Assembly (NCBI GenBank): GCA_045615365.1
Contig: JAZLEQ010000007.1
Location: forward strand, 1,029-65,028
DNA from: Alphaproteobacteria bacterium
GTDB taxonomy: Bacteria > Pseudomonadota > Alphaproteobacteria > RF32 > CAG-239
Length of the DNA: 64,000 bases
Direction of reading: 5' to 3'
Under the pieces are notes generated by a model. That model saw only the letters and a list, made by a program, of their open reading frames with translations, did no database searches and was not told where the DNA came from. This document shows positions 4,789-51,318 of this stretch, one piece after another (position 1 is the first letter of the stretch; each line of letters begins with the position of its first letter). The translations under genes were made by a program, and so were the position numbers.

Positions 4789-5388
4789 TTATAAATTATA
4801 TATTTTAATATATTTGTTTAGCGTTGGTTTGCTAATATTCAATTTCTTTGCTATTTTGTATTTTGGTGCTTTTTGTTGCAACAATTTCTGAATAATTTTT
4901 TCTTTTCCTTCCATTTTTGATTTTTTATTACAAGCACCTTTAGGGCGTCCTAAAGATTTACCTTCTTGTTTTCTTCTTGCCAGAGCTTCTTTAGTTCGTA
5001 AAGAAATTAAGTCCCTTTCCATTTCTGCAAATGCAGATAAAATAGCCAACATCATTTTTCCCATAGGGCTTTGGTCTAAACCCAGGTTTTGTTTAACAAA
5101 CCAGACGTTAACTCTTTTTTGTGCAAGAATATCACAAGTATCCAGAACATCTACTGTAGACCTTCCAAATCTTGATAATTCTGAAGTTATAATCAAATCA
5201 CCTTCTTTTGCTATTTTTATTATTTTACCAAGATTTCTGTTTCTTGCTTTTACAGTTCCTGAAACTCCTGCATCTTCTACATATTTATCAATTTTCACAC
5301 CAAGTTGGTGAGCTTTTTGTTCAATTCCTATTTTTTGATTTTCACAGTCTTGTTTGTCCGTGGATACTCTAATATAGCCAAAAATCAT
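4789..5388 (-). CDS. Small serine recombinase (resolvase/invertase family)
   Basis: MIFGYIRVST catalytic Ser motif, SELSRFGRS, FAEMERDLISLRTKEAL, GRPKG, C-terminal HTH. Confidence 0.93.
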   Translation of the reverse strand: MIFGYIRVSTDKQDCENQKIGIEQKAHQLGVKIDKYVEDAGVSGTVKARNRNLGKIIKIAKEGDLIITSELSRFGRSTVDVLDTCDILAQKRVNVWFVKQNLGLDQSPMGKMMLAILSAFAEMERDLISLRTKEALARRKQEGKSLGRPKGACNKKSKMEGKEKIIQKLLQQKAPKYKIAKKLNISKPTLNKYIKIYNL

Positions 5389-6395
5389 TAGAATACCTCC
5401 GTTGTTTTTAATATTTTTCCAACAGCGGTGGGATGCAATGCCCCATAAGAAGTAAAAGTCGTTTTTATATCAGAATGACCAAGACTTTGGCTTACTGCAT
5501 TAAAAAATTCTGGGCGTTGTTTTTCTGACCATTTTGCAATCATATGTCTAAAACTATGTACTTTGCGGTATGGAAACCCTTGTGATGTAAAAGCTTTTTT
5601 AAAAATATTACCTATTGTTGAATTAGATTTTATTTCTGTTTTTTGAGGTCTGGTTTCCAATAAATTTAACTGGTTAAATCGGCTAGGAATAATAGGAAAC
5701 AAACTATCTTTATCTGCAAAACCTAAAGACATTAGCTCTTTTTTCCAATTAATAACATTATCTTTAACATCATTATCAAATGGCAAAAAATATGCGCATC
5801 GTGTTTTAGCAAATTTAACATTCATATCTTTAGGATTAACATAAATCATCCAATTTTCAGCATCTTCATTATAAATAAGGTTTTTTAATTTTACTGTTCT
5901 TAATTCTGAAACTCGTAGCCCACATAAACATTGAAGAGATATTATAGCTCTATTTCGTCTCTCTTCTAATGTATTTATTGGCATTCCTCGAATAACCTGA
6001 TACACTTCATTAAGTTTATAACTATGCTGATATTCTGAAGCTCTAGCTTCATTTCGTTGATTTTTTGTAAGACTAAGATAGGCTAATATATTATAATTAA
6101 TTTTACTCTTATATCCTTTTTGTCTTTCTAACCATGTATAAAAATCTCGCAAAGCTTTAAGATTATGGTCAATGTAAGATAAGCTTAAATCTTTTTTTAG
6201 CAGTTTTTCAATGTACGTATGTATTATGTTTTCATTAATCGAACAAAAATCTGCAAAATTTTGTGTGACCTCAAATTCATGTAGATGTTTTATAATTGCC
6301 ATAACTGTTTTGAAGTCTCGTTGTTTAGCTTTTGCCAAATAAATTCTGTATTGATATTTGATGCGCTCATTTTTATGATTATACAAACTATTCAT
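5388..6395 (-). CDS. Tyrosine recombinase (second integrase-family gene)
   Basis: GLRVSE, VKFAK, HSFRH, LGHS and SYG catalytic residues; start moved to ATG 6395 behind AGGAGA RBS. Confidence 0.85.
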   Translation of the reverse strand: MNSLYNHKNERIKYQYRIYLAKAKQRDFKTVMAIIKHLHEFEVTQNFADFCSINENIIHTYIEKLLKKDLSLSYIDHNLKALRDFYTWLERQKGYKSKINYNILAYLSLTKNQRNEARASEYQHSYKLNEVYQVIRGMPINTLEERRNRAIISLQCLCGLRVSELRTVKLKNLIYNEDAENWMIYVNPKDMNVKFAKTRCAYFLPFDNDVKDNVINWKKELMSLGFADKDSLFPIIPSRFNQLNLLETRPQKTEIKSNSTIGNIFKKAFTSQGFPYRKVHSFRHMIAKWSEKQRPEFFNAVSQSLGHSDIKTTFTSYGALHPTAVGKILKTTEVF

Positions 6396-6912
6396 AATTA
6401 AATTCTCCTTGTTTGATTTCTGACTCATTTTTTTGATTTTTGTTATTGCAATCAATCTTAGTCTTTAAGGTAGAATTTAAAGAATCATATAATCTCGATA
6501 ATGGCTCTATAGTGAAATTTTTTTGTAGAGCTGATAAATCAGAAAGTTTAAAACTTTTATTCATGACTTTTTTATTTTTTGAGCATATGGCTTTTGCTAA
6601 GATACATTTTTGCTTGTGCTCAATATAAATAGTTCTGTTATATGGAACATGTGGCTCTTTACAACTAAAACAATAAAATTCATCGAAATTTAGCTCAAAA
6701 TGATGTTTGTCATTAATTTTACCTAAAAAATATTTAAGGTCACTTCCATGCACAAGCACCGGTTTATGATTATCAATAACTGGTAAACCATTTTTAATCC
6801 ATTTGCGGACAGTTTGAGGATGTAATTTTCTATTTACATAAAGATTACAAATATCTTCAATTGAATAGCATAAAAGATTAGATATCTGTTTTATACTATA
6901 AGTCTTACTCAT
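6388..6912 (-). CDS. HTH protein with CxxC region, coupled to tyrosine recombinase
   Basis: LHPQTVRKWIKNGLPVID..PVLVHGSDLK HTH, FYCFSCK motif; GGAGGG RBS; overlaps recombinase start. Confidence 0.7.
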   Translation of the reverse strand: MSKTYSIKQISNLLCYSIEDICNLYVNRKLHPQTVRKWIKNGLPVIDNHKPVLVHGSDLKYFLGKINDKHHFELNFDEFYCFSCKEPHVPYNRTIYIEHKQKCILAKAICSKNKKVMNKSFKLSDLSALQKNFTIEPLSRLYDSLNSTLKTKIDCNNKNQKNESEIKQGEFNYE

Positions 6913-9323: not shown

Positions 9324-10475
9324 TTATTGAGAAAAGTTCCTATATTCAAGCATTTTATTTGTCGCATCTTCCATAGATTTACGTACAGGGTCAGTCGTTA
9401 ATCTTGCATAAATTTGTGTGGATGCTTGTGATTTATGCCCTAAAGATTTTCCAATAATATTCAAACTTGTTCCCATTATGGCTTGATAGCTACCTAACGT
9501 TCGACGTATGTCATGTATTCTTAAATCAGAAATATTTGCCTCGGTTAAAATACGGTTCCATGCTTTTTTAGGGTCTTGCAAGTGTCCGTTAGGCAGAATC
9601 GGCGAAGGAAAAACCCATTCATTTTTTCTTTCTATAGAATTTAGTAATTCAATGGCCGCAGATACTAATGGAATATTTACCGGTTCTCCGTTTTTAGTAT
9701 CTGGGATTCTCCACATTCCCAAAGCAAAATCTATCTCCTCCCATCGCATAGCTAAGACATTGGATTTTCTAGCTCCGGTAAACAGCGACATTAATATATA
9801 ATTTTTAGCAACTTCGTTTGGTTCATTTTGTAAAGCATCAAAAAAACGACGAAATTCATCCGGATGTATAAATCTATCTCTTTTTATCTCTTTATTCTTT
9901 TTTATACCATTACAAGGATTAACACCATCCCATCCCCATTCAATAGCTCTATTATACATTGATTTTAGGCGTTCTAAGGTTCTATTGGCTTGGTAAAGCC
10001 CATTTTCTTCACTTATTTGCTCATGTAGTTTTTGAATTTGCAACTTGGTAATGTCAGAAATTCGTCTGTTAAACCACATACCTAAAAATTTAGGAATTTC
10101 TCGTTCGTCATATTTCCAAGATTTTTTAACTTTTTTAGAATAACGGTTCATAAATTGATTAAATAACTCACCTAATGTAATCTCTTTACGAAGCTTAGAC
10201 TTTTCCTCGTTAGGATTTATGTTTTCTGCAATTTGTAATTTTATAGCTTGTGCTTTAGAACGAGCGTTTTCTATGCTTAACGTCGGAAAATCACCTATAA
10301 TTATGCGTTCATCTCTGCCATTCACCATTTTTCTAACAAAAAATGTTTTTGTTCCATTAGCAGTAACATATATTTTTAGCCCTTTTTCCGTTGTATCAGA
10401 ATATGTTTTATATCCCTTTTCAGGAACAGGTAGGCTTTCTAATTTCTTCTTTATAAAATTAAATTTAGTTTCCAC
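9324..10475 (-). CDS. P4-like tyrosine integrase with arm-binding domain
   Basis: N-terminal GLKIYVTANGTKTFF arm-binding domain; TGARKSN, TKNG, HDIRRT, LGH, TQIYAR; GTG start at 10475 behind GAGGTG RBS. Confidence 0.93.
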   Translation of the reverse strand: METKFNFIKKKLESLPVPEKGYKTYSDTTEKGLKIYVTANGTKTFFVRKMVNGRDERIIIGDFPTLSIENARSKAQAIKLQIAENINPNEEKSKLRKEITLGELFNQFMNRYSKKVKKSWKYDEREIPKFLGMWFNRRISDITKLQIQKLHEQISEENGLYQANRTLERLKSMYNRAIEWGWDGVNPCNGIKKNKEIKRDRFIHPDEFRRFFDALQNEPNEVAKNYILMSLFTGARKSNVLAMRWEEIDFALGMWRIPDTKNGEPVNIPLVSAAIELLNSIERKNEWVFPSPILPNGHLQDPKKAWNRILTEANISDLRIHDIRRTLGSYQAIMGTSLNIIGKSLGHKSQASTQIYARLTTDPVRKSMEDATNKMLEYRNFSQ

Positions 10476-10489
10476 CGTCAAATCACCTC

Positions 10490-10510
10490 GTTGCCGAATT
10501 GTTGCCGAAT
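10490..10510. repeat. 10-bp direct repeat GTTGCCGAAT x2, probable integrase arm-type sites
   Basis: Copies at 10490-10499 and 10501-10510, between integrase start and att core. Confidence 0.55.
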
Positions 10511-10627
10511 ACATTATTAAAGTTTATACGTTTTTATTAAACTTCATAAAAGCAATATATAACATAACTTTTTGAAAATCAATAACTATATATATTAAAT
10601 TTAATTTTATAAAACTTGAGACCCAAA

Positions 10628-41679: not shown

Positions 41680-41756
41680 CGGGACGTAGTTCAGTCTGGT
41701 AGAGCGCTTGCATGGGGTGCAAGAAGTCGGAGGTTCGAATCCTCTCGTCCCGACCA
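41680..41756 (+). tRNA. tRNA-Pro(GGG)
   Basis: CGGGACG acceptor stem, CTTGC-ATGGGGT-GCAAG anticodon arm, GGTTCGAATCC T arm, CCA end. Confidence 0.95.
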
Positions 41757-41967
41757 TAAAACAAAGAGCCTGCCCTTGTGGTGGGCTTTTTGTTTTATTA
41801 TCATGAAGTGATGGGATTTGAAGCTCCGGAGAAGGAGGTTCGACTACAAGCGAAAGGCAGACGGAAGTATGCCGGTAAGCCAAAGGCTTATGAGCGCCAG
41901 TGCGACGAAGTCAATCCTCTCGTCCCGACCAGATACAATAAAACCCTGCCCTTGTGGTGGGGTTTTG
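41757..41967 (+). repeat. tRNA-linked repeat duplicating the tRNA-Pro 3' end and terminator
   Basis: AATCCTCTCGTCCCGACCA at 41738-41756 repeated at 41913-41931; CCTGCCCTTGTGGTGGG hairpin follows both copies. Confidence 0.8.
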
Positions 41968-42044
41968 TTGTGTTTGGATTAGAGACTGAACGAAACAAAG
42001 TGAGTAATCTTTATCAATCCGAAGTATTAAATTTTGTTTATTTA

Positions 42045-42390
42045 AAAAGCGAAACCGCCTTCAATACAAAAGAAGGCGGTTAGTTCGGTTTGCATTTCGG
42101 AGGCCATACAATTAAAAGATGTAAGAACTTATCGGTCTTGAATGCCGGTGCAACGACATTTTTTGACGGATTTATTCCTAGCGTTATTGACCTTTGTTTC
42201 AGTTGTTATTTCACACTCGTTAAAAGCCCTCTCTTTGTTTAACATAAGGTGGAAACAACAAACTAAAATCAATGAAAAACAAACAACAAAACTGCTCTTG
42301 GTGTTTGCGTGGTGATCAGTCAGACAAATACCTCAACTCTTTTAATAAAGAGATTTTATTTATAAAAAATACAAATTCTTATTAAAGTTC
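42045..42390 (-). ncRNA. Candidate structured small RNA
   Basis: No convincing ORF; long imperfect stem with G-U pairs on minus strand; terminator AACCGCCTTC/GAAGGCGGTT at 42053-42081. Confidence 0.3.
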
Positions 42391-42535
42391 GTTTTTTTTA
42401 TATCAATTATTTTTTTTGTCAATAAAAAAATTGAAGCCGAGGGTTGAGGTTAATCTTTGTAAACTTTATTCATTGACAAACAATCGAGAGTTTTCGTATA
42501 AATTTAAATGTCTAATATTATAAATTTTTAAGTAT

Positions 42536-43030
42536 ATGAAAAAGTTTTTTTTATTGCTTGCATTTGCTTGCATTCTTTTTTCTTGCAGCAAGAAGAAAGA
42601 GAACGTTGTTGAAGAAATAGTTCAGCAACCTGTGAAAGAAGTTTATCAACCTGTTCATCAGAAAATGGTGATAGATTTCCAAAAGACTATTATGTATAAC
42701 TATTTTGAAGCTCCTAAGGCTTCTGCGGCAAAATCAGTTACGGTTAATTTTGATCAAACTGCGCTTTATATCAAACCTATTGAAGTAGTGTATCTTTATG
42801 AAAACGGCGATACATTTACTTATGTTTTGGAAAAATTCGGTGTTTGGCAAAATGAGAACGGAAAATATCGTATTATAACTGATGAAAAAAACACCGTATG
42901 GGTTCAGGGGCAAACAAAATCCGGAAAATTTAAGGAATTTGTTTTTTATGGAAATCCTGAATTTAATGGGAAAATTTCGCCAAACTCTTACAGAAATTTA
43001 CCTAAGGGCGAAATTAAATATCGTAATTAA
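42536..43030 (+). CDS. Hypothetical lipoprotein
   Basis: MKK..LFSC lipobox; TTGACA-N18-TATAAA promoter at 42473-42502; terminator near 43045-43076. Confidence 0.8.
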   Translation: MKKFFLLLAFACILFSCSKKKENVVEEIVQQPVKEVYQPVHQKMVIDFQKTIMYNYFEAPKASAAKSVTVNFDQTALYIKPIEVVYLYENGDTFTYVLEKFGVWQNENGKYRIITDEKNTVWVQGQTKSGKFKEFVFYGNPEFNGKISPNSYRNLPKGEIKYRN

Positions 43031-43164
43031 CGGTATTTGTTATTAAAAACGGCACTCGTTAAAAAAGTGCCGTTTTTATTTTTAAGTTGCGGCAAAACAT
43101 ATACTTAATAATAGCGCAATATGGTAAATGGATTAAAAAAGGATAAAATTTGAAAAATTCACAA

Positions 43165-43387
43165 TCATATTATTTTCATAAACAAATTTATGAGGTGTGA
43201 TATGATGAAAGCATATTGTGACAGCTCATTTGATGAGAAAAAAGGAATTGCCGGAATTGGGATTGTGATTGAAAACGGCACAAAAAGAAGATTGGTTTCC
43301 AACTGGATTAAAGCTCGGTCAAATAATGAAGCCGAGCTTTTTGCTATTTATTTGGCTGGTATTTTAACCGAAAACAACGGAGTTATA
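43165..43387 (+). repeat. Direct repeat copy 1 (RNase H leader and 5' CDS)
   Basis: 223 bp, about 15 mismatches by eye versus 45539-45761. Confidence 0.9.
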
Positions 43388-43441
43388 ACCTTTGGTAAAC
43401 CACTCTTTGCTCCATATTTCGACGATATCCCTTACAAATAA
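43202..43441 (+). pseudogene. Truncated RNase HI paralog
   Basis: Matches the 45576 gene up to NNGVI, then unrelated sequence; lacks YTDS and later catalytic residues. Confidence 0.85.
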
Positions 43442-43574
43442 ACTACTTCCTAAAATTTGGACGTATAAAATAATTTATTTACATGTCTTAGAATTTATGA
43501 TATATTGAGACTGTGAGCTTGAAATAATATATAACGATATTTAAATTTCTAATTTATAAGAACTGATAAGCAAA

Positions 43575-44687
43575 ATGTATAATAAAGCAAATTCAAAAGT
43601 AAAAGCAAGTTCAAGGATATTTGCATTCTCTGAGCAAGTTAAAAATTGCGATTTATCTCTTTTACCTAAAACAATTGAAATTCATTTGTCTAATATTTGC
43701 AATAATAGTTGTAAATTTTGTTTTTATCAAGCAGACCGATCTCTTTTGGATAAAATTACATTTTTACCTACTGAACGTATTATTTCACTTTTATCTTCTT
43801 TTACAAAAGAAACTGACAAGTCCTTAGTTTTATCAGGAGGAGGCGAACCAACTCTACACCCTCACTTTTCTGAAATTATCGATAAAGCTGTAGATGTTGG
43901 CTTTGATGTTGGTGTAATAACTAATGGCATACATTATAATCATAAAATTGAAGAAGCCCTAAAAAAAACAAAGTGGGTTAAATTTTCTTTACATGCCGGC
44001 GATGCTAAAACTTACCAAAATTTAATGTATAATGATAATGGGGTAGAAATTTTCAATCGTGTTCAAAATCATATAAAATCATTAGTAGCATCAAAAACGC
44101 CTATGACAAAAATTTCTGTTGGGTGCGTAATTACTCAAAAAAATCAATCAGATTGTGATATATTAAATTATTTTGATAATGCTACAAATAATTTGCATGT
44201 TGATTATGTTTTGTTTAGAGGATATATGGGCTCTGATCCTGTTTTACAAATAACGCGGAAGCCAGAAGATTTTTCACACATCGAACAAATTATTGCCTTA
44301 CGCTCACAAGAAAAAGATGTTTTTTCTAATTTTTCTTCATTTATAAGAGATTATAATATAACTAGAAACTATTTAGACGGTATATGCCCTATCGTATCTT
44401 CTGGAATGATCGCAGCCATCACTACAGACGGCAACGTGCATATTTGTTTACCAACAGCACAACAAAAAAATGTCCCTTCAATAGGTTCTATTTTAAATGA
44501 ATCGTTTCATGACATATGGAATAGCGACAGGCATCATGCTGTATTAGATGAGTTATTAATAAAAAATTGCCCACCATGTAAATATGAAAGGATGTTCCCT
44601 TTAATAAAAAAAATAAAAAATAATAATTGCAATTTAGAACAAGAGATAATAAAAGCCAAACAAGATCCCCATTGGAGATTTTTGTAA
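43575..44687 (+). CDS. Radical SAM protein with SPASM/twitch domain
   Basis: CNNSCKFC, SGGGEPTLHP, ITNG, C-terminal CP...DGNVHIC...IGS...CPPCK. Confidence 0.9.
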   Translation: MYNKANSKVKASSRIFAFSEQVKNCDLSLLPKTIEIHLSNICNNSCKFCFYQADRSLLDKITFLPTERIISLLSSFTKETDKSLVLSGGGEPTLHPHFSEIIDKAVDVGFDVGVITNGIHYNHKIEEALKKTKWVKFSLHAGDAKTYQNLMYNDNGVEIFNRVQNHIKSLVASKTPMTKISVGCVITQKNQSDCDILNYFDNATNNLHVDYVLFRGYMGSDPVLQITRKPEDFSHIEQIIALRSQEKDVFSNFSSFIRDYNITRNYLDGICPIVSSGMIAAITTDGNVHICLPTAQQKNVPSIGSILNESFHDIWNSDRHHAVLDELLIKNCPPCKYERMFPLIKKIKNNNCNLEQEIIKAKQDPHWRFL

Positions 44688-45343
44688 TGAATTCAAAAGA
44701 AAAAGAAATTAGCAGAGAAATTGTTTTTCCAGACACTTTACTGCCTTTTGTGGATGATATTAATCGCCTATGTTTTCGCAAAAATGATGAGAATTTATCA
44801 GAAATAGATACCATTTTTGTATTTGGTAGCACCTCAGAATTAGAAAATATGAAAAAATCTATTTTTCATATTTTTAATAAAGCCCCAATATCAACAATTA
44901 TTATTTCCGGAGGTGTGTCAAAAAAAACATATCCATTATCAGAATCGCTTGCTATTTTTAATAGTATTAAAGATATAATTTCTTCGGATATAGATGTAGT
45001 ATTAGAAGATGAAGCATCAAATACAAAAGAAAATGTCGAATTATCGTTAAAAAAACACCCTACTCTGATTACCAGCAAACTTTGTTTTGTTTCGAAATAT
45101 TTTGCTGCAGGACGTTCTTTTTTAACATTGCAAAAATTTTTACCAAATGCTTTAATAAAACAATATGCTTTTGTTTCAAATGATTGTCGTCCGGAAGAAT
45201 GGATAAGTTCCCCTAAAGCCAGATCTTTGGTTTATGGTGAAATAATGCGTATTTTTACCTATGGAAAACGAGGTGATATTTTTTATGATGAGGTGAAGGA
45301 AAAAGTTGATTTTTTAATAAAAAAATCAACTGGGCAAATCTAA
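44687..45343 (+). CDS. DUF218 (YdcF/ElyC/SanA-like) protein
   Basis: IFVFG, IIISGG, SES, LEDEASNTKENV; ATG overlaps the radical SAM stop (TAATG). Confidence 0.8.
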   Translation: MNSKEKEISREIVFPDTLLPFVDDINRLCFRKNDENLSEIDTIFVFGSTSELENMKKSIFHIFNKAPISTIIISGGVSKKTYPLSESLAIFNSIKDIISSDIDVVLEDEASNTKENVELSLKKHPTLITSKLCFVSKYFAAGRSFLTLQKFLPNALIKQYAFVSNDCRPEEWISSPKARSLVYGEIMRIFTYGKRGDIFYDEVKEKVDFLIKKSTGQI

Positions 45344-45538
45344 CACATTATTTTATTCCCTTGGTGAAATTTGTAATATTTGGATTGGGAGCTGAACGAA
45401 ATGATGTGGGTAATAACATTTGTTATTAAAAACAACGCTTATCATAAAAAGCCGTTGTTCTTATTGTAGAACCTAGACTTAAAGTTAACACAATATGGAA
45501 AAAGGGTTATAATAATGTAAAAATTGAAAAAAATGCTC

Positions 45539-45761
45539 TCATATTATTTTCATAAACAAATTTATGAGGTGTGATATGATGAAAGCATATTGTGACAGCT
45601 CATTTGATGAGAAAAGAAAAATTGCCGGAATCGGAGTGATTATTGAAAACGGCACAAAAAGAAAATTGTTTTCTAACTGGATTAAAGCTCGGTCAAATAA
45701 TGAAGCCGAGCTTTATGCTATTTATTTGGCTTGTATTTTAACCGAAAACAACGGAATTATA
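45539..45761 (+). repeat. Direct repeat copy 2
   Basis: Offset 2374 bp from copy 1. Confidence 0.9.
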
Positions 45762-46001
45762 TATACCGACAGCCAGACCGCCATAGAATATATTACACAC
45801 GACATCAAAGAAAAACCGCGAACTAAAGAACAATATTTGCGACACAAACATTGCGAATATTGGGCGCTTAAAATCAGAAAACAAAATGTCAAAATAGAAA
45901 AAATTAAAGCGCATCAAAAAGTTTTTCAAACCCACTCTTTAGGCAACAGGTTTGCCGATTTGGCTGCAAATGAAGGCAGAGCAAAATTTTATGAAAGATA
46001 G
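45576..46001 (+). CDS. Ribonuclease HI family protein
   Basis: YCDSS, NNEAEL, YTDSQ, KIKAH, GNRFADLAA: complete DEDD set; GAGGTG RBS. Confidence 0.85.
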   Translation: MMKAYCDSSFDEKRKIAGIGVIIENGTKRKLFSNWIKARSNNEAELYAIYLACILTENNGIIYTDSQTAIEYITHDIKEKPRTKEQYLRHKHCEYWALKIRKQNVKIEKIKAHQKVFQTHSLGNRFADLAANEGRAKFYER

Positions 46002-46125
46002 AAAAACTTAATTCGTCTTGCCCCTCAAATTTCGCTTGAGGGTAATAATAAGTTGCAAAATGATAATGACAACAATATAGTGATTATGTTCAAAGCTTCT
46101 CAGTTTGAAAAATAGAGAATGAAAA

Positions 46126-47274
46126 ATGAAAAATACGGAAAAAATATTATGTGATATAATCGCTATCAGAACAGATAATACTCTTGTCGGCAATAAAAGT
46201 TGCGTTGATTATATTTGTTCGTTGTTAAATGATAACAATATTTTGTTTAAACGAATTCCTAATCTTGATGACGGAAAAGAAAATATTATTGCCGGAATTA
46301 ATATTCAAAGTTTTAAGAATATTAATTCGGGTGTTGTATTGTCGGGACATATGGATACAGTGACCGTCAACCTTAAAGATTGGGACACTAATCCGTTTAT
46401 TGCAACAAATATCAATGGTGCAATCTACGGCAGAGGAACTGTGGATATGAAATATTTTATAGCAGCCACACTTTCTCTGATTCAAGAGTTTAAAAAATTT
46501 AAGGTTCCTGTTTTTTTATTATTTTCATGTGATGAAGAAACGTCCGTTAAGGGAATTGAAAATCTTATTCAGTTTTTCAAAATGCGAAATATTCATCCTC
46601 AATTTGCATTGGTCGGTGAACCGACAAACTTTAATATCGGATTGATGAGTAAGGGATATTCCGGATACACAACCATAGTCAAAGGTGTGTCCGCTCACTC
46701 AAGCTGTCCCGAATTGGGCACAAATGCCGGATATGTAGCCGCAAAGATTGTTTCCAAAATTGAAGAATTGAATGCTGTTTATTGTAAAGAAAAAACAACC
46801 TTAAATGTCGGAGTTATCAGTGGCGGTGAAGGCCGAAATCTTATTCCCAGTGAAATGATTATAGAATGGGAAATTCGCTATGATAGCGAATTGCACAAGT
46901 CAGAAATATTGAAAAAAATAGAAGATTTTAACAATGAACTTATGAAAAAATATAAAAATTCTTATATTCAAACCAAAACAAAAGAAAATCTGTTATCATT
47001 TGAACAACAGGCTGAAAGCCCCGTGGTTTCTATTGCGCAAAATTTATTAAAAACTAAAACTTTTAATCTACCTCACGCAACGGAAGCAGGTTTTCTTAAA
47101 AATTTGGGTTATGAAAGATTTAATTATTGTTTTTTGGCGAATATTTTGGATGTTCGTCGGTGCTCCGTTTGTTTTAGCATTGCTGAATGTTTTTGTCGGG
47201 GCTTTTTTGGGCTGGTTTGTCGGTCTGTTTTTCGGAGATGCAATTCTTGGAATTTTTGCTCAAATCGGTATTAG
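46126..47274 (+). pseudogene. argE: ArgE/M20 deacetylase with replaced C-terminus
   Basis: LSGHMDTV, YGRGTVDMK, DEE, GEPT, AHSS, ATEAG present; final GPG...AH..E metal-ligand segment absent, sequence switches at about 47110. Confidence 0.65.
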
Positions 47275-47386
47275 CGGTTTTTCAATGTGGCAAATAGGTG
47301 CATTTTTAGGATTTGTTTGCGGCTTTTTCAGAAAACTGATTACCTTTAATGATTTTAGAAACAATAATAAAACAAAAATTAAATGA
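47111..47386 (+). CDS. Small Gly/Phe-rich membrane protein (phage-like)
   Basis: Two to three hydrophobic helices with glycine spacing (GAFLGWFVG...GAFLGFVCG); overlaps the next ORF by ATGA. Confidence 0.65.
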   Translation: MKDLIIVFWRIFWMFVGAPFVLALLNVFVGAFLGWFVGLFFGDAILGIFAQIGISGFSMWQIGAFLGFVCGFFRKLITFNDFRNNNKTKIK

Positions 47387-47856
47387 AAATATTAAATCAA
47401 AAATTTCAAGAACAATCAAAAGATGATTGCTTCGTAGCTCTTTTGGGAACAAAAATTCATTTTTACAATGACACTTTAGCGGATGAAGTTAATGTTTATA
47501 TGACAGCAACTCCTGTTGCAAAAGGTGTGAAATTATACGATATCGGCGAGGTTTTGTATGATTTTAGGAAAAACAATCCTCATTGTGTGTGGGTTCGCCT
47601 GGTTACAATAGAAGAAATAATAGAGTTTAATTCTTATGGCGAGGATTTCGGAATCGGCATAAGAAAAGCAAAAACATCTTCTACATATGTTGACCATCAC
47701 GGAAGAGCAGAGTTTCAATATTGCTGGGACAACGGAAAAAAACGAGACGATAACAGTGATGTTTCAGACGTATATTTAACCTTTGCGTTAAAAGCAAATG
47801 AACCACAATTTATAAGATATAAAAAAACAGAAACGCATGAAAAACAAAAAATTTGA
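47383..47856 (+). CDS. Hypothetical protein
   Basis: 157-aa ORF coupled to the upstream gene; terminator near 47925-47969. Confidence 0.6.
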   Translation: MKILNQKFQEQSKDDCFVALLGTKIHFYNDTLADEVNVYMTATPVAKGVKLYDIGEVLYDFRKNNPHCVWVRLVTIEEIIEFNSYGEDFGIGIRKAKTSSTYVDHHGRAEFQYCWDNGKKRDDNSDVSDVYLTFALKANEPQFIRYKKTETHEKQKI

Positions 47857-47980
47857 AAACTCAAAAATCGGAACTTTCTCTGGTCTGACAGAGTTTGTCA
47901 AACTGGAAATAAAAAACTAAAACAAAACGCAGATTTTCTTTTTTTACAGAAAGAAAATCTGCGTTTTTTTAATTGAGATT

Positions 47981-48382
47981 TTACTGATTTGCGTTTTGTT
48001 GACATGATATGCATAAATAAAACGTATCAACTACATCTCCGAGAGTTTTCCACTCTTCAATATTTAGATAATCACTGCTTGATATTGAGTATTTTTGCTC
48101 TAAATAGATTTCCAGCTCCATGATCTCAAAGCTGTCCATACCTAAGTCATTCTTCATTTTTGAGGCAAGAGATACATCATCTTCAGGAAAAAGGATTTTT
48201 TCCTTTTTCAACCATGTTACTACATGCTCAAAAATTTCATGTCTCAAATCTGTTGATGTGGTTTCTGAAGTTTTCTTAACCTCTGTTGCCTTTGCAATCT
48301 CCGCCGATAGCATTTCTATTGCCTCTTGCGGTGTTAAGTTTAACTCTGAGATTGCTTGAATTAGTCTTTTTACTTTTTCCAT
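47981..48382 (-). CDS. Acyl-carrier-protein-like domain with N-terminal helical extension
   Basis: NDLGMDSFEIMELEIYLE (Ser attachment motif), KTLGDVVD. Confidence 0.75.
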   Translation of the reverse strand: MEKVKRLIQAISELNLTPQEAIEMLSAEIAKATEVKKTSETTSTDLRHEIFEHVVTWLKKEKILFPEDDVSLASKMKNDLGMDSFEIMELEIYLEQKYSISSSDYLNIEEWKTLGDVVDTFYLCISCQQNANQ

Positions 48383-48555
48383 AACTTTAAAATTAATAAT
48401 TGTTTTTAGATATTCACTGTTATCACATTATTTAAATTTTGCAATATTTTTAAAAGTGAGCAGCTGCAAATTTTGATTAAAATAAAATTTTTAATTTATT
48501 TTTAGGATATTATGTGATATGCTATTAAATAGATACAAGCAATAGTTTGTATTTA

Positions 48556-48816
48556 GCACCCGAGTGGTGCGGGGGTTTCATCGCCTCTTACTACATTCGG
48601 TGTTAGGGTATAACATCGTCATATTGTTATCTGTAATTATAGGTAACAATAGATATATCCCCAATTCATAGTGATATGGTTGGGGAGCCTTTAATGTATG
48701 TTCAGGAACCATATTTCTATCTCTGAAAAAATATGGGTCTAAAGATTAAGGGAATCATTTAATGTAGTATGATTGATGAACTCTCCGACCACCTTATAAA
48801 AGGTGGTTTAGTTTTT
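48556..48816 (+). ncRNA. Candidate multi-branch structured RNA of unknown family
   Basis: At least 8 helices found by eye, including long-range closing stems; mismatches are mostly G-U on the plus strand; GNRA loop. Confidence 0.6.
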
Positions 48817-48835
48817 GATATATGTAATGGAGGGT

Positions 48836-49978
48836 ATGATGAGTAATATTTTTGATGAAATATCTACAAGAATAGAAACTGAACCTTTGCATTCTTTTTT
48901 TGCAGAGGATGTGGCACGAGCAATGGACCAACATTTCTATGATAGAGATATACATAGAGGTTTACATAATAGTGAAGAACTACGAGAACCTGAAAAAGCA
49001 TATGGTGTAATTCTTAAATTTATGGATAAATGTAATATAACAAGTCTAAAAGACCAAGATAGCTCTTGTTATGGTAAAGTTGCAATATCATCCTATTTAG
49101 CCAGAGCCTGTGCTACAATACCAGCAGAATCCCCTGAAATGGCTGCTAAATTAATTAAAACTACAAGTGAGTTATTTGAAATGAGAAGTGATGGTGCTAT
49201 TGCTCAATTTCAATTAGATACATTTGCTAAACAAGGAAAATATTTAGGTGATAAAAAAGTTGCTGAAGCTTATTTAGATGCAACATCAAAAAGTTTTTCT
49301 AAACTTGATACTCCATATGATTCTTGTGTATCTGCATTAGAAAAATATAAAAGTATCGTTGCAGACCATCCGGAAATGGCAGCAAAAGTTTTAGATACAG
49401 TATCAATGCTACAAGATAGATTTGCGGATAATCCATATTATAAAGAAGCTACCAATGATATATTAAAAGCAATTGCAGATAATCCGAGAATTGATACTAA
49501 TACAAGAAATTCAAGTAAGGATAGATTACCTAATTTAGAAACACCTCAACCAATGGCTCATAATGGTTTACAGATGGCAAGAACAGAACCTCAAAGCAAT
49601 AAAAGTGAAAATAAAACTACCACAAAACCATCTGTCAAAGATAAAGCAAAAGATTTTATTAAAACATCAAAATCTTATACCGGTGGTAAAAACTTGTTTT
49701 CAAAATTAAAAGAAAAAATGGAAACATTTGCTAAAGAAAACCCCAAATTGCTCACAGCAGGTGGTGCTGCTGCAATGTTTGCAGGAATTGGCTCTATGAA
49801 TCCTCAATTAGCTGCTGCCGGTGCTATTATAATGTCTGCAGGTGTTAAGGCTTGGTCTGACAAGTTAAAAGATATGAGAGGATTAGGAAAATCTAGTAAT
49901 AGTGCTAAAATACAACCCTCAAAACCTTTAACATTAGATTATGCTGTTCATAAAAGTTTGACATCTCGCGAGGTATGA
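48836..49978 (+). CDS. Orphan protein: helical N-terminus, Gly/Ala-rich hydrophobic hairpin
   Basis: GGAGGG RBS before ATG 48836; LLTAGGAAAMFAGIG...AAAGAIIMSAG segment. Confidence 0.75.
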   Translation: MMSNIFDEISTRIETEPLHSFFAEDVARAMDQHFYDRDIHRGLHNSEELREPEKAYGVILKFMDKCNITSLKDQDSSCYGKVAISSYLARACATIPAESPEMAAKLIKTTSELFEMRSDGAIAQFQLDTFAKQGKYLGDKKVAEAYLDATSKSFSKLDTPYDSCVSALEKYKSIVADHPEMAAKVLDTVSMLQDRFADNPYYKEATNDILKAIADNPRIDTNTRNSSKDRLPNLETPQPMAHNGLQMARTEPQSNKSENKTTTKPSVKDKAKDFIKTSKSYTGGKNLFSKLKEKMETFAKENPKLLTAGGAAAMFAGIGSMNPQLAAAGAIIMSAGVKAWSDKLKDMRGLGKSSNSAKIQPSKPLTLDYAVHKSLTSREV

Positions 49979-50328
49979 TAAGTATGATTATATTAGATAA
50001 TTTTGAATTCCATATTAAAAATAATGAATTAGCAATATCCATAGATTGTCCTGTTGCTGAAATTAACAATTTGAGATGGGATACTAAAAATACACTTATT
50101 TTAAGTATGGAAAATGGAACACAATATGCACTAATTAATATTTTACCTAATATTAGGAAAATTTTAGAAAGAATAGAAACAGTAATGATTGTATTTAAAC
50201 AAAAACAAGATATTGTGGATGCATATGATATTGAAATAATTAAAGATACCACCTTAGAGTTTGATGATTTATTTAATGAAGAGGCTATATCTTGTTATAG
50301 AAAAATTGAGGAGTTGAAGAAAGGATAA
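49975..50328 (+). CDS. Small acidic hypothetical protein
   Basis: ATGA-coupled to the upstream gene, TAATG-coupled to the HD gene. Confidence 0.7.
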   Translation: MISMIILDNFEFHIKNNELAISIDCPVAEINNLRWDTKNTLILSMENGTQYALINILPNIRKILERIETVMIVFKQKQDIVDAYDIEIIKDTTLEFDDLFNEEAISCYRKIEELKKG

Positions 50329-50975
50329 TGACACTATCAATTCAAGAAGCTGAAGATATAATCGCCGAAGTAAAATCTCGTGATACTGCTATTGGTAGAG
50401 ATATGTCTCGTTGGTGGATGTATGAAAATCATATCAGAGCAGCTGCAAACATTGCTAAAACCATAGCATCAAAAATAGATGGTATGAATGAAACTAAAGC
50501 ATATATTTGTGGTTTATTGCACGATGTCTGCCGAACTAATGAAAGGCAAGAGGCAAGGTTTCACAGCATTACAGGCTATGAAAAATTGGTTGATAAAGAT
50601 GAAGATGTAGCTCAATCTGTATTGGTTCATATGTTTCCTTGGAATGAAATTCCCCCTTACGAAGAATGTAAAGATATGTTCTTTGGTAACAAGAAAGACT
50701 ATGATTTTATTGTTGAATACACTAAAAATAATTCTCTAAATGATTATGATTTACTAACTCAAATGGCTGATAGCTTATCAAATAAAAATGGAATAGTTAC
50801 ATTGGAGCAAAGAGCAAAAGAATATTCAGAAAGACACGGAGTTGATATTTTATCATCAATGATAGAGCCAAGACATCGTCTTAAATTATATTTTGATAAA
50901 AAGGTTGGTGGAAATATTTATGATTTGATTATAAAAAATAACTCTTATAATTTTAGCATAAATCAAGGAAGATAA
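50328..50975 (+). CDS. HD-domain phosphohydrolase
   Basis: ENH, GLLHD, FHS..GY, LVH, QMADS motifs. Confidence 0.88.
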   Translation: MTLSIQEAEDIIAEVKSRDTAIGRDMSRWWMYENHIRAAANIAKTIASKIDGMNETKAYICGLLHDVCRTNERQEARFHSITGYEKLVDKDEDVAQSVLVHMFPWNEIPPYEECKDMFFGNKKDYDFIVEYTKNNSLNDYDLLTQMADSLSNKNGIVTLEQRAKEYSERHGVDILSSMIEPRHRLKLYFDKKVGGNIYDLIIKNNSYNFSINQGR

Positions 50976-51231
50976 ACACATTTCACTCCTCAATATTAAC
51001 TTTGATGTATTGATATTTTCCGCTAGGGATGTCAGGGCAAATTATACCTATAGGGGTTAATGCTTTGTGCCAACACCACAGGCAGACAAACCTTGATAAT
51101 GAATTAAATAGTTTTTCAATCTTTCTAAACTTTCACTTATAGTTGCTTTCTTTTTTATGGAAGGGAAAAATCCAGTTATTTCAATGACAAAAAACTTCAA
51201 CCTCCTATCAAAAATAGGAGATTGTCAAGAT

Positions 51232-51318
51232 TGGTGCTCCGGAAAGGACTTGAACCTTCATGAGGATTCCCTCACAAGTACCTGAAACTTGCGCGTCTAC
51301 CAATTCCGCCACCGGAGC
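51232..51318 (-). tRNA. tRNA-Leu(CAG)
   Basis: GCTCCGG acceptor, CAAGT-TTCAGGT-ACTTG anticodon arm, long variable arm, GGTTCAAGTCC, CCA. Confidence 0.95.

Follow-up and report, generated by a model that had tools for sequence, protein, structure and literature searches.

The DNA analysed here, referred to as the window, is a 64,000-nt stretch of contig JAZLEQ010000007.1 (assembly GCA_045615365.1), whose housekeeping genes are of a Gram-negative, anaerobe-like alphaproteobacterial type (35% G+C), one that would fit GTDB order RF32. At 48533-48816 on the plus strand lies a leader RNA of about 285 nt with a multi-branch fold, which ends in an intrinsic terminator and is followed by the ribosome-binding site (RBS) of a translationally coupled trio of genes (Table 1). 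For the first product of this trio, a 379-aa protein (P0001), a search of 5.8 billion proteins returned only 22 relatives at E<=0.001, none of them named. P0001 carries no signal peptide and has a hydrophobic, Gly/Ala-rich stretch at its C-terminus; in genome G017 (locus L004) its orthologue is likewise headed by the leader.

An earlier note on this DNA had drawn a structured RNA at 48556-48816, seen no resemblance to any known RNA class and proposed a new non-coding RNA or attenuator with a functional tie to the three genes downstream. Each of the helices it listed is present where it was placed, and the fold it drew is the minimum free energy (MFE) fold computed with ViennaRNA. The start has to be moved upstream, since a covarying hairpin (P0, 48533-48552) precedes it. 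Besides this 5' hairpin, the description overlooked the promoter that most copies carry, the occurrence of the element in multiple copies, and its switch, all of which are taken up below.

The plus-strand MFE is -93.2 kcal/mol, compared with a mean of -60.7 kcal/mol for dinucleotide shuffles (z -6.90), and none of 200 shuffles was as stable. The minus strand folds less well (-71.9 kcal/mol, z -5.77), which is what a plus-strand RNA with G-U pairs should show and which agrees with the remark that the non-Watson-Crick pairs are mostly G-U in that orientation. A terminator scan called the hairpin at 48787-48808 plus its tail, finding two terminator-like sites against 0.1 expected. Rfam 15 at gathering thresholds returned nothing but two tRNAs from the whole window, and at E<=10 the segment 48350-48900 gave only chance snoRNA and miRNA matches below threshold; in seven other loci with members of the family described below, only tRNAs were matched. 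The lack of resemblance to a known class is thus borne out in the window and in all seven of these loci.

Table 1. Features of the window: the leader RNA and the genes it heads, followed by genes of the tRNA-flanked stretch in which they lie
Feature	Position	Strand	Evidence or remark
Presumed promoter region, window copy	48500..48532	+	Weak match, TG-n-TATTAA near 48520-48528; presumed from other copies
P0 hairpin, 5' end of the RNA	48533..48552	+	7/7 pairs with changes on both sides, 63 copies
P0b hairpin, GCACC/GGUGC	48556..48570	+	Double changes in 3/5 pairs; 86% paired
P1 closing stem, 5' strand	48571..48587	+	P1a 48571-75, P1b 48577-83, P1c 48586-87; 48571-48583 paired with 48774-48786
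Alt1 hairpin, GAGC/GCUC	48572-75 with 48584-87	+	98.8% paired; double changes in 2 pairs
P2, 5' strand	48589..48597	+	Partner 48761-48769; double changes in 9/9 pairs; 98.6% of cells paired
P3 hairpin	48598..48618	+	Sequence nearly invariant; 99.2% paired
P4 hairpin, variable sequence	48622..48651	+	Double changes in 9/9 counted pairs
P5 hairpin with GNRA loop (GUGA), proposed anti-antiterminator	48658..48686	+	99.8% of cells paired
Candidate antiterminator, 5' strand UGGUUGGGGAG	48677..48687	+	Pairs with 48781-48791 in 693/693 cells
P6 arm, conserved internal loop and variable inner hairpin	48688..48752	+	7/8 outer pairs with double changes
Alt2 hairpin, AAUCAU...AUGAUU	48753..48774 (48753-58 with 48769-74)	+	97.6% of cells paired, no double changes; predicted for the antiterminated fold only
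3' strands of P2, P1c, P1b and P1a	48761..48786	+	63-copy pair count
Candidate antiterminator, 3' strand CUCUCCGACCA	48781..48791	+	Overlaps P1a 3' strand and terminator 5' half
Intrinsic terminator, hairpin 48787-48808 and U-rich tail	48787..48816	+	Terminator scan; 92.4% of cells paired in 63 copies
RBS GGAGGG (48829-48834) and start codons ATG 48836 / 48839 of first gene	48829..48841	+	Sequence
Gene 1, 379-aa protein	48839..49978	+	No Pfam, PADLOC, NCBIfam or PHROG match
Gene 2, 117-aa protein	49975..50328	+	No family; 4-nt overlap with gene 1
Gene 3, HD-domain protein	50328..50975	+	PF01966, E 1.9e-10; 1-nt overlap with gene 2
Radical-SAM protein	43575-44687		Sub-threshold viperin-like match; in the tRNA-Pro/tRNA-Leu stretch
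RNase H	45564-46001		Same tRNA-flanked stretch, which also holds an M20 peptidase
157-aa protein	47383-47856		Faint deaminase-type match, E 0.0086
ACP-like protein	47981-48382	minus	Followed by the leader and its three genes

Conservation of the RNA structure

The element is multicopy. By BLAST, the host's own 1.6-Mb genome contains two full copies, the one in the window and one on contig 3 (73% identity), and a third match that a profile search showed to be a degenerate near-full copy; relatives of the same genus have one to five matches per genome. RNAalifold applied to 17 full copies predicted 74 pairs, 32 of them compensatory. We then scored all nested helices, from P0 and P0b through P1a-c and P2-P6 to the terminator, on an alignment of 63 distinct copies (A5): 93.6% of 4769 cells are paired, and double changes occur in 46 of the 77 pairs and in 521 cells. 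None of 500 shuffles attained any of the five measures, and sliding the partners by 1-3 columns as a control left 39-44% of cells paired with at most 112 double-change cells. Most of the covariation comes from P0, P2, P4, P6 and the middle of P1 (the P1b pairs of A5 columns 193-195 with 434-436 show 19, 28 and 27 double changes), while P3 and P5 hardly vary in sequence. The element is real and strongly covarying, and is under selection as an RNA; the covariation among homologs that had been put forward as a check is amply present.

A conserved pairing that would block the terminator

The two most conserved stretches of the family are the 3' strand of P5 and a segment that runs from the 3' strand of P1a, in the closing stem, through the terminator's 5' half, and they are complementary to each other: UGGUYGGGGAG (48677-48687, the P5 3' strand plus two bases) can pair with CUCUCCGACCA (48781-48791) over 11 pairs. 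This pairing is possible in all 693 cells of the 63 copies, compared with 37-55% in slid controls, and one of its pairs (A5 columns 338/443) is G-U in 59 of the 63 copies. In several copies from a second alphaproteobacterial order (see below) the two strands change together, GGAUC standing with GAUCC and GGUUC with GAGCC or GAACC. Moreover, the P5 3' strand is longer by one base in 11 of 91 parsed copies; the partner strand has gained a base as well in 10 of these, and in not one of the remaining 80.

Since the candidate antiterminator helix excludes P5, P1a and the terminator, the three together form an anti-antiterminator/antiterminator/terminator arrangement. When the antiterminator was enforced, in folds of the single sequence as well as of the alignment, P6 was retained and two further hairpins, Alt1 and Alt2, formed; their strands are invariant yet unpaired in the terminated (OFF) fold and find partners in the enforced one. 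There is also a complementarity between the P3 loop (GGRUAU) and AUAUCC at the foot of P5 (48655-48660), present in 62 of 63 copies, which may be a tertiary contact or a component of the antiterminated (ON) fold.

Two other ways of working the terminator were considered and set aside. Attenuation of the trp leader-peptide type would use a short frame that an AUG in the P5 3' strand opens in some copies; this frame has no RBS, other copies lack it, and the arm that follows differs in length between copies by amounts that are not multiples of three. Pairing of the P0b 3' strand with the terminator 5' strand as an antiterminator came up once, when the window copy was folded in truncated form, but the loop sequences of P0b are not conserved.

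Placement relative to genes and promoters

A same-strand open reading frame (ORF) follows 60 of the 67 profile matches in the loci examined, and in 58 of these 60 it starts within 35 nt of the end of the match (67 and 145 nt in the remaining two); typically, the gene begins about 12-30 nt past the leader. All 60 gene-linked copies stand in a single orientation relative to their gene, none being flipped, and the terminator is conserved in all 63 copies of the alignment, so that a hairpin with a U run comes immediately before the gene. A spacing of 35 nt or less leaves room for an RBS and none for a promoter, which suggests that expression of the gene depends on read-through of the terminator. 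Of the seven matches without an ORF, five are inner units in tandem arrays, a sixth is truncated by the end of its contig, and the seventh carries an insertion within the terminator loop. In one copy (L053 ~1800-1887, G181:C35), near a contig end, unrelated sequence with a hairpin of its own splits the terminator after its 5' strand; the interruption could be either an insertion or a recombination junction.

Just 5' of P0, the pattern TTGnnn-N16-18-TAnnnT is found in 46 of the 63 copies, and at least 9 of 12 consensus positions are matched in 15 of the 63. By comparison with these copies we infer a promoter at 48500-48532 for the window copy. The genes upstream are heterogeneous, ranging from tRNA synthetases, ribosomal protein S9 and Obg to an integrase, resolvases, HipA, Fic and GmrSD, and a scan of 58 such neighbours showed no conserved partner gene.

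Two loci contain the element in head-to-tail arrays with a period of about 327 nt: L049 (1553-2780 in RNA orientation, G144:C9) has four complete promoter-RNA-terminator units and L052 (1348-2125, G120:C14) about 2.5. Every spacer carries TTGACT-N17-TAAAAT, and a gene, for a 191-aa lipoprotein, is present only after the last unit; L044 and L058 have a single-copy leader before the same lipoprotein. The leaders of this lipoprotein-linked subfamily (L044, L049, L052 and L058) share, in the junction that follows P1 (A5 columns ~201-208), a poly-T run that varies from 6 to 8 T between copies, a tract that is possibly prone to slippage. In L037 and about 15 other copies of A5, a perfect 14-bp palindrome, TTAATTGCAATTAA (or one A longer), overlaps the -35 region at columns ~70-90. 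Autotransporter leaders and some lipoprotein leaders have it a second time at columns ~480-500, between the terminator and the RBS. The palindrome is absent from the window copy; elsewhere it may serve a dimeric DNA-binding protein as operator, act as a second promoter or be a site of recombination.

Genes headed by the leader

The window operon is one cargo among many. For the first order, a Pfam scan of 54 proteins encoded downstream of a leader assigned 17 to the autotransporter beta-domain, four to OMP_b-brl (beta-barrel/Opacity-type outer-membrane proteins) and three to PDDEXK_4 (PD-(D/E)XK), with one each of DNA methylase, Acyl_transf_3, GT2 and HTH_3; 23 had no family, many of these with a lipobox. 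Several further first-order proteins, cut by the ends of their loci, have the same signal peptide as the autotransporters. Signal-peptide and lipobox heuristics applied to 59 proteins gave 24 with the autotransporter-type signal, 12 lipoproteins and four outer-membrane proteins. A further set of 26 (24 from the second order and G210, two from the first order) contained four DNA methylases (two EcoRI-type, one N6/N4 and one C5), one GmrSD nuclease, two glycosyltransferases (GT8 and GT61), one Acyl_transf_3, two nucleotidyltransferase-kinase fusions, three PEGA lipoproteins, one PMP-repeat protein, one TRL lipoprotein and 11 proteins without a family. Similar sets of genes are phase-varied in other host-associated bacteria.

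The tie to the three genes of the window (the 379-aa/117-aa/HD-domain operon) cannot stand in the form proposed, given that the same RNA heads many unrelated genes here and in more than 100 other genomes. Leader subtype does track gene class: for 47 of 59 copies, the most similar other leader heads a gene of the same class, whereas 1000 shuffles gave 16.3 on average and 30 at most, a comparison that is descriptive only, as the copies are related.

Distribution of the family

To count the family across genomes we used a 96-position covariance model of the P3-P5 core (R1), and the distribution figures that follow rest on this core only. Of the 56 genomes examined from the genus, 47 have R1 matches. 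A sample of 151 genomes from the order has them in 113 (15 of 20 genera), and a one-per-family sample of the class in four of 151, two of these four lying outside the order. In the second alphaproteobacterial order, around genome G190, 26 of 28 genomes have matches, with up to 11 per genome. Two copies of this order, L202 and L224, are decayed, one with its 3' half diverged away and the other with a deletion joining the core to the RBS region of a lipoprotein gene.

An exact-pattern scan of the genomes of 185,579 species returned at least 118 stretches. Among the 80 stretches listed, four are titled Bacteroidaceae or Eubacteriales bins; the remainder, which come from the guts of humans, rabbits, goats, deer and chickens, are uncultured Alphaproteobacteria, proteobacteria or unclassified bins, among them 'Proteobacteria bacterium CAG:495' and 'Candidatus Scatocola faecigallinarum'. 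A literature search returned no description of this RNA. It could have been listed before as an unnamed cluster among the 3161 unnamed candidate RNAs from human microbiomes in the supplements of PMC8040213, the main text of which has no occurrence of Alphaproteobacteria, Proteobacteria, autotransporter, outer membrane or CAG.

A default-off attenuator and its alternatives

Considering the conserved terminator, its position directly before the RBS, the conserved alternative pairing that would block it, the covariation and the lack of any Rfam match, we read the element as a default-off transcription attenuator of a new family, opened by a trans factor or a ligand, and give this reading a probability of about 60%; the earlier suggestion of a new RNA or attenuator is thereby upheld. 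The cassette would consist of a sigma-70-type promoter (in most copies), the structured RNA, an intrinsic terminator, an RBS and the gene. In the putative OFF fold, P1 and P2 would be closed around the four arms P3-P6 and followed by the terminator hairpin, with P5 acting as anti-antiterminator. In the putative ON fold, the P5 3' strand would pair with CUCUCCGACCA and so block the terminator, P6 would be kept, and Alt1 and Alt2 would take up the conserved strands that are released. A trans factor (a small-molecule ligand, a protein or an RNA) would shift the RNA toward the ON fold, and the gene would be transcribed only upon read-through of the terminator by RNA polymerase. The leader is thus probably a shared on/off gate for the genes downstream. 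The structure, its covariation, the multicopy distribution, the placement and direction of the copies relative to genes and the three-way complementarity are shown by the data; we infer that the leader is transcribed, that its read-through is regulated, and that there is a factor and of what kind it may be.

Several observations weigh against this reading. In the main order, the antiterminator shows a single double change (G-C to A-U) among its 693 cells and is otherwise wobble-compatible, and the second-order copies with covarying strands or matched extra bases come from related genomes and perhaps reflect few events, so they are not independent. Alt2 has no compensatory change, and the pairing of the P3 loop with the foot of P5 varies in the wobble manner only. 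By nearest-neighbour energies, the terminator fold is favoured over the antiterminator fold in all 62 of 62 copies; the median advantage is 20.5 kcal/mol for the full-length RNA and 14.9 kcal/mol for an RNA that stops short of the terminator's 3' strand, and the MFE fold of the truncated RNA holds the antiterminator in none of the 62; because OFF is favoured in every copy, we read termination as the default and a helper factor as required for ON. A consensus promoter scan of the window called no plus-strand promoter at the window copy, whose own match is weak. Gene-less tandem units fit a free RNA as well as they fit a leader, and the regulated genes (autotransporters, outer-membrane proteins, lipoproteins, transferases, DNA methylases and nucleases) share no metabolite or pathway, in contrast to those under most riboswitches. 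Finally, the one true metatranscriptome among four runs represented by Logan contigs gave two 151-nt contigs, 49103-49248 and 49298-49448 (11 and 4 differences), both inside the gene for the 379-aa protein; the leader lies outside them, and they provide no evidence of its transcript, 3' end or read-through and are uninformative as to whether it is transcribed.

A sub-case of the attenuator reading, which we hold to be rather unlikely, is a small-molecule riboswitch in the strict sense, with the four-arm core as aptamer and a ligand selecting the fold. A conserved structured domain backed by covariation (46 of 77 pairs, none of 500 shuffles) is there, the junction is large, invariant nucleotides are left unpaired, and the terminator platform shares strands with the core. 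Cyclic di-GMP (c-di-GMP) would fit control of adhesins and of the surface: the cargo is dominated by adhesin-type and envelope proteins and the genome encodes four GGDEF proteins. The known c-di-GMP riboswitch families had no Rfam match in the window. The methylases, nucleases, lipoproteins and transferases among the cargo do not suggest a single metabolite, no similarity to an Rfam riboswitch was seen, the energy gap between the folds is large, and ligand binding is putative. It is less probable that the element is a stand-alone multicopy small RNA (sRNA) gene, acting in trans or as a protein decoy, with the downstream genes expressed by incidental read-through; we consider this improbable, even though a promoter match in 46 of 63 copies, a terminator of its own in all 63 and the arrays of four and 2.5 units, whose spacers each hold a consensus promoter and no ORF, are what such a gene would have, and even though terminated leaders of other systems do act in trans (PMC6614838). 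A pure sRNA gives no role to the conserved antiterminator, nor does it account for a gene that starts within 35 nt in 58 of 60 cases, always on the same strand and with no room for a promoter, or for a leader subtype that follows gene class (47 of 59 against a shuffled mean of 16.3, in related copies). A dual role, as leader and as free sRNA, is possible.

The type of cargo also resembles gene sets that are varied elsewhere by DNA rearrangement, which raises the question of whether the element acts as DNA alone, be it a miniature mobile repeat, a cassette for recombination or gene conversion among surface genes, or an invertible promoter switch. It is multicopy, many copies sit at contig ends, some have the palindrome on both flanks, one integrase and two resolvases (Pfam Resolvase, proteins 16 and 22) are among the 58 upstream neighbours, and a serine recombinase adjoins the degenerate copy in L003. 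Compensatory changes in six separate internal helices and the strand-specific conservation of a G-U pair (columns 338/443, 59 of 63 copies) are difficult to reconcile with such a role, the upstream flanks include ordinary housekeeping genes, and terminal inverted repeats or target duplications were not noticed, although no systematic search for them was made. An invertible switch in particular is contradicted by the single orientation of 60 of 60 gene-linked copies and by candidate repeats that hold the conserved G-U, that is, mismatches at the level of DNA. We therefore regard a DNA-level element as very improbable, and return to the attenuator in what follows.

Candidate factors and related systems

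In protein- and tRNA-dependent antitermination, a factor chooses between a terminator and an antiterminator that exclude each other. We searched the host genome, which is 99.9% complete, for proteins that could play this part. It has a single NusG match, so that a second NusG, the RfaH/LoaP-type paralogue, was not found in it, and neither CAT_RBD (BglG-type) nor ProQ was found there. Hfq is present, with no link to the element seen. CsrA control through the GGA-containing loop of P3 was rejected, since the genome has no match to PF02599, a search in which the control was positive in three reference genomes. In the ANTAR search, the positive control itself gave no match anywhere.

As in the leaders of the PyrR, TRAP, L20 infC, T-box and BglG/LicT type, a 5' leader carries a terminator before the gene and an antiterminator that excludes it; the terminator fold is the more stable and a factor decides, as we read it for the present element, and PyrR leaders have an anti-antiterminator hairpin, as proposed here for P5 (terminator/antiterminator leaders: PMC3064811, PMC1865079, PMC3369936). 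The element differs from them in having no Rfam leader match, in a genome without CAT_RBD, in being much larger than most protein-binding leaders, in heading many unrelated genes instead of one pathway, and in belonging to gut Alphaproteobacteria and not to Firmicutes. With terminator riboswitches, including the c-di-GMP classes that control adhesins, it shares a multi-helix core that has strands in common with the terminator and antiterminator, and the occurrence of several copies before surface genes. Unlike riboswitches, it has no Rfam riboswitch match and no common metabolite to its cargo, and would be switched by an internal arm, P5, together with the closing stem.

RfaH ops/JUMPstart, LoaP leaders and EAR resemble the element in that a shared leader precedes horizontally variable surface or envelope genes. 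These systems act via NusG paralogues or by modification of RNA polymerase, without a single adjacent terminator and a complementary antiterminator, whereas the host genome has one NusG. Like raiA, ROOL, GOLLD and HEARO, the element was found by its structure, covaries strongly, is common in uncultured bacteria and has a putative function; unlike these RNAs, of which it matches none in Rfam, its position in cis is clear and it comes with an expression platform. It is a new RNA class with a known working principle, spread over two orders of gut Alphaproteobacteria.

Other regions of the window

The leader and its genes lie in a stretch of accessory-looking genes, 41680-51318, between tRNA-Pro(GGG) (41680-41756, plus strand) and tRNA-Leu(CAG) (51232-51318, minus strand), which may be an island (Table 1). 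Far from it, at 4789-6455 and 9324-10514 (minus strand), a serine invertase of the Mpi family (NF009949, E 1.9e-57, below the family cut-off) stands beside a tyrosine recombinase, with a second integrase-like gene 3 kb from the pair; this is possibly a site-specific recombination or mobile region.

Significance

One type of leader before up to 11 genes per genome would make a regulon of surface, envelope-decoration and restriction-modification genes. A bolder proposal, which we consider doubtful, is that the leader is the hub of an RNA-based contingency regulon in which a single signal or factor would flip bistable leaders and so switch surface and methylome in a coordinated manner, with the gene-less tandem copies as threshold-setting decoys. 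Its members would be autotransporter adhesins, Opa-like porins, lipoproteins, enzymes of lipopolysaccharide- or choline-type decoration and restriction-modification methylases. If true, such a regulon would be a termination-level alternative to phase variation by repeat slippage or DNA inversion.

The family would add a large and well-supported orphan class of regulatory RNA, with a switch that can be read from its sequence, from a lineage known almost solely by metagenome bins. Being a compact and portable cassette of promoter, leader and terminator, it is directly amenable to reporter fusions. The genes it heads shape the appearance of the cell to host, phages and neighbours, and finding the factor that opens the leader would reveal how uncultured commensals control their surface.

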